Position numbers and translations under genes: made by a program. Shown piece after piece: positions 4,603 to 39,806 of a stretch of DNA of 64,000 nucleotides. Origin of the DNA: Paenibacillus cymbidii (GTDB taxonomy: Bacteria; Bacillota; Bacilli; Paenibacillales; NBRC-103111); NCBI RefSeq assembly GCF_004764705.1, contig NZ_SHLX01000014.1, forward strand, positions 90,953-154,952, read 5' to 3'. Position 1 is the stretch's first letter. Each line of letters opens with the position of its first letter. The notes beneath the pieces are model-generated. The model was not told the origin of the DNA. It saw only the letters and a list, made by a program, of their open reading frames with translations, and did no database searches.

Positions 4603-5319
4603 ATGGATGGCAAGAATCCAGCCGTTAAGGTGAATCGCAAAGTGAACCGCCGCGAGGAGGCGCTTAAGCAGCGCAATCGCAAAATCGCCGTCATTTCCAC
4701 GATTGCCGTCGTGATCGTGGCATTCGTTATTTTCGCCATCGTGAAAGCGGCAACCGCCAAGAACAAGCCCGCCGAGTTCGATTACGCGGCGCAGCCCGCG
4801 ATCGGCAGCGCTACCGCCCCGGTCAAAATCGTCGAGTTCGGCGATTTCAAATGCCCGGCCTGCCAGGCGTTCGAACAACAAATTTATCCGCAGCTAAAAA
4901 AGGACTACATCGATACCGGCAAGGTGCAGTTTCATTTCATGAATTTGCCGTTCATTGATGTCGACTCGGTGACGGCCGCCCTGGCCGGCGAAGCCGTGTT
5001 CCATCAGAACAAAGACGCGTTCTGGCCGTTCTACGAGGCGGTGTACAAAAACCAGGGCGACGAAAAGGTGCGGTGGGCCACCACGGACTTCCTCGTCAAT
5101 TTGGCCAAACAGGCGAACTTGCCGATCGACTTCGACAAGCTGCGCAGCGACATTGACGGCAAGACGTACCAGCCGGATGTCGTAAGCGACAACGACAAGG
5201 GCGGCAAGCTGAAGGTGACGAGCACGCCAACGCTGTTCATCAACGGCAAGATGTACGATTCGCCGTTCGATTACAACAAGCTGAAGGCCGCGATCGACAA
5301 AGCGGCTGCCGGCCAATAA
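4603..5319 (+). CDS. bdbD: Thiol-disulfide oxidoreductase of the DsbA/BdbD family (membrane-anchored thioredoxin fold)
   Basis: One TM helix, then a thioredoxin fold carrying the CPAC active-site motif (FGDFKCPACQAF). It sits directly upstream of a DsbB-like gene. Confidence 0.8.
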   Translation: MDGKNPAVKVNRKVNRREEALKQRNRKIAVISTIAVVIVAFVIFAIVKAATAKNKPAEFDYAAQPAIGSATAPVKIVEFGDFKCPACQAFEQQIYPQLKKDYIDTGKVQFHFMNLPFIDVDSVTAALAGEAVFHQNKDAFWPFYEAVYKNQGDEKVRWATTDFLVNLAKQANLPIDFDKLRSDIDGKTYQPDVVSDNDKGGKLKVTSTPTLFINGKMYDSPFDYNKLKAAIDKAAAGQ

Positions 5320-38729: not shown

Positions 38730-38856
38730 CGGCAATTCGGTTGTTTTTTCGGCACTTGGCGTAAAATATAAAGAGAAGATGATGCAAAAGGCGATAGATT
38801 GAAAAGTAATAACGTGTTAAACTATAGAGATCACGGGAGGGAAGGAAGTGTTCGGC

Positions 38857-39009
38857 ATGTCGAAGCAGGAGTTGGACGCTTACCTGGAGGAACTTCGTCG
38901 ATTCGAACGTGAAATTCTCAGCTCGGAAGACAAGGCCAATGCATTGCTTGTTTGTGCAGGAATACTTGACGAAGAGGGCAATCTTGCTCCACAATACGCC
39001 GGAGAGTGA
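38857..39009 (+). CDS. Small acidic helical protein (50 aa; 53 aa if the GTG at 38848 is used); candidate partner or antitoxin of the downstream gene
   Basis: This ORF is below the track cutoff and was found by reading the sequence. RBS is GGGAGGGAAGGAAG. Translation: MSKQELDAYLEELRRFEREILSSEDKANALLVCAGILDEEGNLAPQYAGE. Its stop lies 7 bp before the next ORF's start, inside a ~45 % GC islet. Confidence 0.4.
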   Translation: MSKQELDAYLEELRRFEREILSSEDKANALLVCAGILDEEGNLAPQYAGE

Positions 39010-39015
39010 AGTCGG

Positions 39016-39618
39016 TTGTATGCGAATCTTCCCAGCTTTGTTTTAGGGTTTCATGGTTGCGACAAATCGGTTGCAGACAAAATTTTGCAGCACGAAGATA
39101 AATTATTGAAGAGTGAAAATAGTTATGACTGGTTGGGGCATGGTGTTTATTTTTGGGAGGACGATCCATATCGGGCTTTGCATTTTGCGGAATATTTGAG
39201 GGATCGTCCCGACCGCGGCAAAAAAGGTTTGCCTCCGATCAAGGAACCGGCTGTCATTGGAGCCGTATTGGATTTGGGACATTGTTTGAATGCGATTGAG
39301 GCGGCATCGTTGGAGATTATAAAGGCCCATTACCACTTTCTGATCGCAACGTTGGAAAAGGAGCAAAAACCGATCCCGGTCAATCGCAGAGGCAGAGATA
39401 CGAACGATCTGTTGGTCAGGGATCTGGATTGCGCTGTAATCCAATTCATTCATGCCGCGAACGAAAGTCTGACTAAACCGGCCTACGACAGTGTACGCGG
39501 CATGTTTATCGAAGGCGATGAGCTATACCCGGGGGCTGGATTTCACGATAAGAACCATATCCAGATCTGCATTCGAAATGAAGCGTGCATCAAAGGTTAC
39601 TTTTTACCTTTCTTATGA
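39016..39618 (+). CDS. Hypothetical 200-aa protein; its motif pattern recalls the DUF3990 family as I remember it (it may have an ADP-ribosyltransferase-like fold). Candidate toxin or defence effector.
   Basis: N-terminal FHGCD, then DWLGHGVYFWEDDPYRALHFAEY, and a C-terminal IQICIRNEACIKGY. There is no signal peptide or TM helix. The gene lies in the low-GC islet and is tightly coupled to the small ORF before it. The family assignment comes from memory and is not verified. Confidence 0.5.
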   Translation: MYANLPSFVLGFHGCDKSVADKILQHEDKLLKSENSYDWLGHGVYFWEDDPYRALHFAEYLRDRPDRGKKGLPPIKEPAVIGAVLDLGHCLNAIEAASLEIIKAHYHFLIATLEKEQKPIPVNRRGRDTNDLLVRDLDCAVIQFIHAANESLTKPAYDSVRGMFIEGDELYPGAGFHDKNHIQICIRNEACIKGYFLPFL

Positions 39619-39633
39619 GAGGCGGTTCGCCAG

Positions 39634-39668
39634 GTTGACAACAACCGTCCCGCGGCCGTATAATGCAA
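39634..39668 (+). promoter_or_regulatory. σA-type promoter of the glpP operon
   Basis: TTGACA-N18-TATAAT (TTGACAACAACCGTCCCGCGGCCGTATAATGCA). Confidence 0.7.
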
Positions 39669-39669
39669 T

Positions 39670-39800
39670 CAAATAAGGACGGTCAGGCGGAGCCCAAAGA
39701 GAGACCCTTACCGGCAAACACATCAGCGACGAAAGTCGTAGGTTTGTTTGCTGCGGTGCAGGGGCTCTTTTTTTGTTAGTTTACGGCCGAAGGGAGCAGA
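39670..39800 (+). promoter_or_regulatory. 5' leader with an intrinsic terminator/antiterminator (putative GlpP-dependent antitermination element)
   Basis: ~130-nt leader that ends in GCAGGGGCTCTTTTTTTG. That stem can pair with the upstream GGAGCCC. A mutually exclusive local helix CAGCGACGAAAGTCGTAGG precedes it. Confidence 0.45.
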
Positions 39801-39806
39801 TCACGC

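Follow-up and report, generated by a model that had tools for sequence, protein, structure and literature searches.

What is the role of the two small genes that occupy a short low-GC islet between a short-chain dehydrogenase/reductase (SDR) gene and the glpP promoter of Paenibacillus cymbidii? The islet belongs to a stretch of 64,000 nucleotides from contig NZ_SHLX01000014.1, referred to below as the window, and encodes a protein of 50 residues followed by one of 200 residues. Both products are 100 % identical to deposited P. cymbidii proteins (WP_167859380.1, 50 residues; WP_135553843.1, 200 residues), which had already been called in GenBank as 'hypothetical protein'. The initial annotation of this DNA read the pair as a toxin-antitoxin (TA) or phage-defence cassette. 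Our analysis agrees with it as to the TA-like character, while the toxicity and the defence role remain matters that we infer. On balance we favour a two-gene module of the type II TA or abortive-infection kind, acquired by horizontal transfer, with an enzyme of the ADP-ribosyltransferase (ART) fold as its putative toxin.

Searches of Pfam and NCBIfam with the 200-residue protein returned no match at E<=10, and the enzyme family lies outside every curated domain library. Over its full length the protein matched PHROG 14664 (function unknown) with E 1e-25. A scan of the PADLOC models, one of the checks that the initial annotation had proposed, gave a match with E 2e-6 to PD-T4-9_A, the profile of the toxin CmdT (PDLC04069). 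PD-T4-9, also named CmdTAC, is an anti-phage toxin-antitoxin-chaperone system of E. coli (PMC9519451; PMC11618068). The match is real but partial, since it aligns only residues 9-57 of the protein with profile positions 6-54 of 191. All 50 family members tested match the same profile, with a best E of 1e-7. The PARP catalytic domain was matched below threshold by 15 of the 50 members (residues ~9-114 to profile ~50-148 of 199). Sequence searches of the PDB, with the single protein as well as with the family profile, gave chance matches only.

From an alignment of 50 sequences AlphaFold2 gave a confident model of the fold, with a predicted local distance difference test score (pLDDT) of 89.1 and a predicted template modelling score (pTM) of 0.84. 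The protein has the split beta-sheet of the ART fold, so that the ADP-ribosyltransferase fold raised in the initial annotation was borne out, and it carries two long inserted helices (96-115 and 136-151). The values listed under this model are 7.9 for PARP4, 7.7 for SAIP toxin, 7.5 for MbcT, 7.4 for PARP1, 7.1 for NatT, 7.0 for ParT, 6.7 for diphtheria toxin, 6.2 for exotoxin A, 5.7 for Tpt1, 5.6 for AcrIF11 and 4.4-4.9 for DarT. Against viral models, Foldseek returned ART-PolyVal domains.

The motifs FHGCD, GHGVYFWEDDPY and IQICIRNEAC, picked out at the outset from the letters of the large open reading frame (ORF), are all present in it. Conservation was counted over 96 non-identical homologs from independent loci. 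Three residues are invariant and sit in predicted strands of the model: H13 in GFHGC (96/96; strand 8-16), Y45 in GxGxYFWE (96/96; strand 43-48) and Q183 in HIQIC (95/95; strand 181-186). In the PD-T4-9_A alignment Y45 falls at about profile position 42, adjoining the essential Y41 of CmdT. Comparison with PARP1 (LWHGS ... GKGIYFA ... LYNEYIVY) places Q183 at what we take to be the position of the catalytic glutamate. R53, R135, D138 and E166 are invariant too in the same set, and we infer that Q183 is the third catalytic residue rather than the equally invariant E166, which is an alternative candidate. By fold and motif we assign the 200-residue protein to the H-Y-[E/D/Q] branch of the ART superfamily, that of PARP, diphtheria toxin and CmdT, and by sequence it is a distant relative of CmdT; its use of nicotinamide adenine dinucleotide (NAD+) and its toxicity are putative.

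The same residues bear on a different account of the pair, in which the enzyme would destroy NAD+ as an NADase or NAD+ phosphorylase, in the manner of the RES toxins MbcT and NatT, and arrest would follow from NAD+ depletion. MbcT and NatT do appear among the structures listed above. The invariant H-Y-Q, however, is the signature of PARP, diphtheria toxin and CmdT and not R-E-S, none of the 50 members matches Pfam RES, neither an Xre nor a DUF2384 domain is present in the partner, and the two proteins matched in sequence, CmdT and PARP, are both transferases. We consider an NAD+-destroying toxin unlikely and retain the TA module with a putative ADP-ribosyltransferase as toxin.

The association of the enzyme with its small upstream gene extends far beyond P. 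cymbidii. Clustered at 90 % identity, the enzyme family counts more than 4,178 clusters, and at 50 % identity it has 3,400 representatives (E<=1e-3); its members come from Bacillota, Pseudomonadota, Desulfobacterota, Spirochaetota, Armatimonadota, Bacteroidota and other phyla. We gathered 124 loci, of which 111 had enough upstream DNA to score the partner, called as an upstream ORF matching the partner profile with E<0.01. Such an ORF was found upstream of the enzyme at 104 of the 111 loci, its end overlapping the enzyme start or lying within a few bases of it, and the partner homologs directly upstream of the ART-like gene measure 48-69 residues. At three more loci (L107, L112 and L115) a divergent upstream partner was recognised by inspection, and at two (L116 and L117) a small ORF bearing the motif lies downstream of the enzyme instead. 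That leaves L162 and L200 as the only true orphans, and the partner is thereby present at about 109 of the 111 loci. The two most divergent partner homologs were looked up, and an intact ART-like gene follows each. Wherever examined, the partner is dedicated to the ART-like enzyme.

The two proteins also diverge together (Mantel r = 0.41, a value reached in 0/999 permutations). Mean identity is 32 % for the partner and 52 % for the enzyme; the partner evolves faster, as antitoxins usually do. No third conserved gene was found within 2.5 kb at 121 loci, be it a SecB-like chaperone, a macrodomain or a hydrolase, and no natural fusion of partner and enzyme was found among 300 proteins. The layout is the generic one of type II TA genes, two small co-oriented genes that are tightly spaced or overlapping and stay paired in varied mobile contexts.

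L116 (4980-5732), like L117, belongs to a divergent enzyme branch (35 % identity) that lacks the upstream partner; its downstream ORF of 67 residues has a similar ...ERGVIDEKGNVLL... motif and a Lys/Arg-rich tail, and the gene order is that of CmdT followed by CmdA. A protein of 692 residues (P0267) carries the same ART domain at the N-terminal end of an Rhs/YD-repeat protein with an HNH/AHH-like end, which may be an artefact of assembly or gene calling. Rhs toxin domains are normally C-terminal, and the arrangement is hence unusual.

In P. cymbidii itself the small ORF ends with the stop codon TGA at 39007-39009 and the large ORF starts with TTG at 39016, leaving a gap of 6 nt (39010-39015) and not the 7 bp first reported. 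The Shine-Dalgarno sequence of the large ORF falls within the last codons of the small one, which implies translational coupling. At homologous loci an overlap of 1 or 4 nt between the two ORFs is common. The TTG start is confirmed by the conservation of the N-terminus MY.., in which Y2 is invariant. The start of the small ORF is less settled. A GTG at 38848 is better spaced from the Shine-Dalgarno sequence (GGGAGG-N7) than the annotated ATG at 38857, and in the cassette of P. whitsoniae the ribosome-binding site is conserved and the 14 nt GTGTTCGGCATGTC are identical, while the remaining upstream DNA is not conserved. Because of this spacing and of the retention of GTGTTCGGCATGTC in P. whitsoniae, the small protein may have 53 residues and not 50.

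The description of the pair as tightly coupled thus holds, and it holds on a wider scale, since the two genes travel as a unit through unrelated neighbourhoods, plasmids and viral contigs. Within Paenibacillus the pair was seen in three species, each time in a different and unrelated setting: in the window it lies beside glpP, in L001 it adjoins rhamnose and glycosyltransferase genes, and in L002 it lies between nrdR and dnaJ. The pair was found on 68 plasmids, 35 of them conjugative. In a Pseudomonas syringae plasmid family it adjoins ParA, an insertion sequence (IS) element and a RelE/ParE pair, and on a Rhizobium plasmid it stands among Tra genes. It is also borne by 37 IMG/VR viral contigs; no full-length enzyme homolog was found in complete GenBank phage genomes. 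Isolated two-gene chromosomal islets with no mobile-element genes nearby were seen in the P. cymbidii window and at L001, L002, L007 and L207. On the chromosome of Leptospira sp. 'Mane' (L006, 1-10594) the cassette is surrounded by closely packed MazE/PIN, PIN and Gp49/HTH toxin-antitoxin pairs, together with a reverse transcriptase and a HATPase_c protein, in what is likely a defence or TA island.

Such carriage could also fit a weapon of the mobile elements themselves. The enzyme would then be an anti-defence or host-takeover ART, after the models of AcrIF11, which modifies Cascade, and of T4 Alt, ModA and ModB, which modify host proteins; the small protein would be its regulator or adaptor, and the P. 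cymbidii copy a stranded remnant. However, many copies are isolated chromosomal islets, where an anti-defence gene has no obvious benefit, and the obligate, translationally coupled small upstream gene is a typical TA feature. The lack of a full-length homolog in complete phage genomes and of an HTH domain of the Aca-regulator kind in the partner also argue against this account, to which we give little credence. A TA module carried by mobile elements is the reading that we keep.

The composition of the islet agrees with its arrival from elsewhere. The initial annotation put it at about 45 % GC in a background of about 62 %, which is essentially right: positions 38730-39634 have a GC of 0.465 (46.5 %) against a window mean of 0.588 (58.8 %; standard deviation 0.039 for 905-bp windows), and the GC is 0.473 over the longer span of 38730-39790 that had been reported. 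No other 905-bp stretch of the 64-kb window has a GC as low as that of the islet, and just 4 of 1262 sliding windows fall below 0.48, each of them overlapping it. At third codon positions (GC3) the small ORF has a GC of 0.47 and the large one a GC of 0.50, compared with 0.83 for the SDR gene, 0.79 for glpP, 0.75 for the glycerophosphodiester phosphodiesterase (GDPD) gene and 0.82 for glpD. The anomaly is real and strong, and the islet is compositionally foreign because its GC and GC3 lie far below those of the window and of the neighbouring genes.

The cassette is absent from 80 of the 80 nearest glpP loci and is therefore not part of the glp locus. In this comparison the closest locus has 73 % GlpP identity, the adjacency of SDR and glpP is not conserved there, and no clean 'empty site' was obtained. 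A search for flanking direct or inverted repeats, target-site duplications and an operator palindrome gave chance-length matches only, and the islet borders are unmarked by repeats. The composition and the absence from those glpP loci uphold the initial view of a foreign islet. In P. cymbidii the cassette is cargo, unrelated to the adjoining glycerol-phosphate genes.

The small partner was modelled with AlphaFold (pLDDT 91) as a helical hairpin, with helices at 3-21 and 24-34 and, after them, a short beta-hairpin bearing the family motif L..AGI.t..G.L...Y; the consensus of the partner family reads M...E....kk...sk..a..fL..aGi.t..G.L...Y. It had no significant match in Pfam, PADLOC, PDB sequences or folds (best fold E 0.77), a PADLOC scan of 6 partners gave no match, and none of the HTH, RHH, AbrB, Xre and DUF2384 domains was matched. 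The initial annotation had called it a small acidic helical protein. It is helical and acidic in P. cymbidii (isoelectric point, pI, 4.3), but acidity is not a trait of the family, as 25 of 30 homologs have a pI of 8-10.6. With a basic pI in most homologs, nucleic-acid binding by the partner is possible. At one locus (L093, 338-907) a partner homolog has a very basic, histone-H1-like N-terminal extension of ~130 residues made of AAKP repeats, which hints at a nucleic-acid or nucleoid association of the partner. At another (L007) two diverged partner copies stand in tandem (4654-4815 and 4827-4991), followed by a single ART-like gene.

A non-toxic two-subunit enzyme, whose mostly basic, nucleic-acid-binding partner would target or activate it for a regulated and perhaps reversible modification of DNA or RNA, would suit the pI of 8-10.6 in 25 of 30 partners, the AAKP-repeat fusion of L093, the Lys/Arg-rich tail of L116 and the inability of CmdT to fold without CmdA, but we judge it improbable, as no conserved ADP-ribosyl-hydrolase (macrodomain, ARH, NADAR) or other third gene lies nearby, the pair occurs patchily and on mobile DNA, next to plasmid-maintenance genes, and the Paenibacillus partners are acidic, so that nucleic-acid binding cannot be a universal requirement.

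For the TA module we propose the following mechanism. With NAD+ as its substrate, the 200-residue ART enzyme would ADP-ribosylate some essential component of the cell, leading to growth arrest. RNA may be foremost among the possible targets, by analogy with CmdT; it is a weakly supported guess, and it leads because of the kinship with CmdT, which is its sole basis. The 50-residue partner, coupled to the enzyme in translation, would bind it and hold it inactive, so that the enzyme could not be inherited without it, and could perhaps aid its folding too, in the way that CmdT is helped by CmdA. The toxin would be freed once the partner is lost or turned over, be it because a plasmid or prophage has gone, under stress or when a phage infects. 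The co-divergence of partner and enzyme lends only indirect support to neutralisation by binding. The direct binding, the trigger and the target are all put forward conditionally.

Several observations weigh against a TA module with an ART-fold toxin. The CmdT match (E 2e-6) spans about a quarter of the profile, the PARP match scores 12-16 bits against a Pfam threshold of 26.7, and none of the solved ARTs is retrieved in sequence by the family profile. The ART fold occurs in many proteins that are not toxins, and every member of the family is annotated 'hypothetical'. Neither an antitoxin domain nor a DNA-binding domain is recognisable in the partner, which had no fold match either, and ahead of the cassette no promoter of its own, palindromic operator or conserved upstream element was found. 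In most lineages a basic partner goes with a near-neutral enzyme; the usual pairing is that of an acidic antitoxin with a basic toxin, and the charges here are the reverse. Our confidence is held down because the basic partners, the histone-like tail of L093 and the missing operator remain unexplained. The coordinates of the islet and of its features are collected in Table 1.

Table 1. Features of the low-GC islet of P. cymbidii, in positions of the window.
Feature	Position	Strand	Remarks
Low-GC islet, 905 bp	38730..39634	.	Bounds: SDR stop codon to -35 box of the glpP promoter
Purine-rich ribosome-binding region GGGAGGGAAGGAAG before the small ORF	38835..38848	+	Sequence reading
Small partner gene, 50 aa from ATG 38857 (53 aa if GTG 38848)	38857..39009	+	Putative antitoxin or neutralising partner; WP_167859380.1
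GGAGAG Shine-Dalgarno of the large ORF, within the 3' end of the small ORF	39001..39006	+	Sequence reading
ART-fold gene, 200 aa, TTG start	39016..39618	+	Putative NAD+-dependent ADP-ribosyltransferase toxin; WP_135553843.1
Candidate catalytic residue H13	39052-39054	+	In the 200-aa gene
Candidate catalytic residue Y45	39148-39150	+	In the 200-aa gene
Candidate catalytic residue Q183	39562-39564	+	In the 200-aa gene

The surroundings of the islet are those first described, a terminator-less SDR gene on one side and the sigma-A promoter of glpP on the other. The gene 5' of the islet encodes an SDR (adh_short, E 6e-54), and no terminator-like site was found after its stop codon. On the 3' side the sigma-A (sigma-70-type) promoter for glpP matches at 12/12 positions (TTGACA-18-TATAAT, 39635-39664), and the genes that follow encode GlpP (G3P_antiterm, E 2e-62), then GDPD and then GlpD. 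An Rfam search of the islet and the glpP leader returned no match. Between the promoter and glpP (region 39635-39806) a leader hairpin ending in a U-run was predicted at about 39680-39789, with a free energy (dG) of -48.9 kcal/mol and a z of -2.96, and glpP, the GDPD gene and glpD are tightly packed. The leader looks like a GlpP-responsive terminator controlling a glpP-glpQ-glpD operon, in which case the antiterminator would regulate its own synthesis.

The ART-fold toxins DarT, ParT, MbcT and CmdT each showed a new way to stop a cell or a phage, the latest being the ADP-ribosylation of mRNA. The family described here is large, spread over many phyla and present on conjugative plasmids and prophages, yet it is unseen by Pfam and NCBIfam and only partly seen by the CmdT model of PADLOC. 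If it is a toxin-partner module, it would add a minimal, chaperone-free two-gene relative of CmdTAC to the repertoire of defence and TA systems, and it would offer a compact system of 200 + 50 residues in which to study the control of an NAD+-using enzyme by a very small protein. In genome annotation, thousands of pairs of 'hypothetical proteins' would become a recognisable module. The family fits an established paradigm, is uncharacterised and is experimentally tractable, with functions that are for now proposed from sequence and predicted models. It is tempting to go further and to speculate that this large unnamed two-gene family comprises an H-Y-Q ART making a nucleic-acid modification not yet described, with the mostly basic 50-residue partner not as a classical antitoxin but as a nucleic-acid-binding subunit that both restrains and directs the enzyme. 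The whole would then be a pared-down counterpart of CmdTAC, without a chaperone, and its way of sensing events in the life of a phage or plasmid would be new; this is an outside chance, and we offer it as such.

Among known systems the closest is CmdTAC. Its toxin CmdT, an ADP-ribosyltransferase, has an H-Y-[E/D/Q] triad, requires Y41 and blocks translation during phage infection by ADP-ribosylating mRNA (PMC11618068; bioRxiv 10.1101/2024.02.24.581848), and it needs CmdA in order to fold at all (PMC11618068). CmdT is the sole characterised protein that the 200-residue protein matches in sequence. The two are alike in size (a CmdT profile of 191 positions against 200 residues) and share the H-Y-[E/D/Q] triad, with Y45 in register with Y41 of CmdT; the small helical partner resembles the N-terminal helix pair described for CmdA, and mobile elements carry both systems. 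There are differences as well. The profile match is limited to the N-terminal ~50 residues of the 200-residue protein. The partner gene comes first here, whereas CmdA lies downstream of CmdT, the divergent L116/L117 branch being the exception. The partner, at 50 residues, is fully structured (pLDDT 91), without the long disordered ChAD tail and without a PADLOC match, and there is no SecB-like chaperone or other third gene, the next gene in the window being glpP.

From PARP, diphtheria toxin and exotoxin A the enzyme differs in its third position, which is Q here and E there, and the PARP scores are sub-threshold. It is a stand-alone domain of 200 residues with two long inserted helices, and it is bacterial, mobile and paired with a small partner. 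Unlike the toxins of RES-Xre, ParST and MbcTA, it has neither the R-E-S motif nor a Pfam RES match (50 members), and the resemblance is at the fold level only; its partner is not of the Xre/DUF2384 kind and is far smaller. With DarTG it would share an ART-fold toxin within a TA or defence module, and DarTG targets nucleic acid. The macrodomain is absent here, however, and the combination of DarT (DUF4433) with a macrodomain that marks DarTG was not found.

The initial annotation had compared the pair with DUF3990 and DUF3791. In Pfam, DUF3990 is one of the families of the ART clan (PMC7955679). Membership of either family was rejected, as 0 of 50 ART-like members matched DUF3990 (PF13151) at E<=10 and 0 of 30 partners matched DUF3791 (PF12668) at E<=1. 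One enzyme homolog is automatically named 'DUF3990 domain-containing protein' in UniProt, so that some annotation pipeline has picked up the likeness. The main text of the NetFlax paper lists no ART node, and a name for the family was not found in a limited literature search or in the libraries, although ART catalogues may list it under another label. Taken together, the module is most like CmdTAC and other ART-fold TA systems and is a member of none of them.

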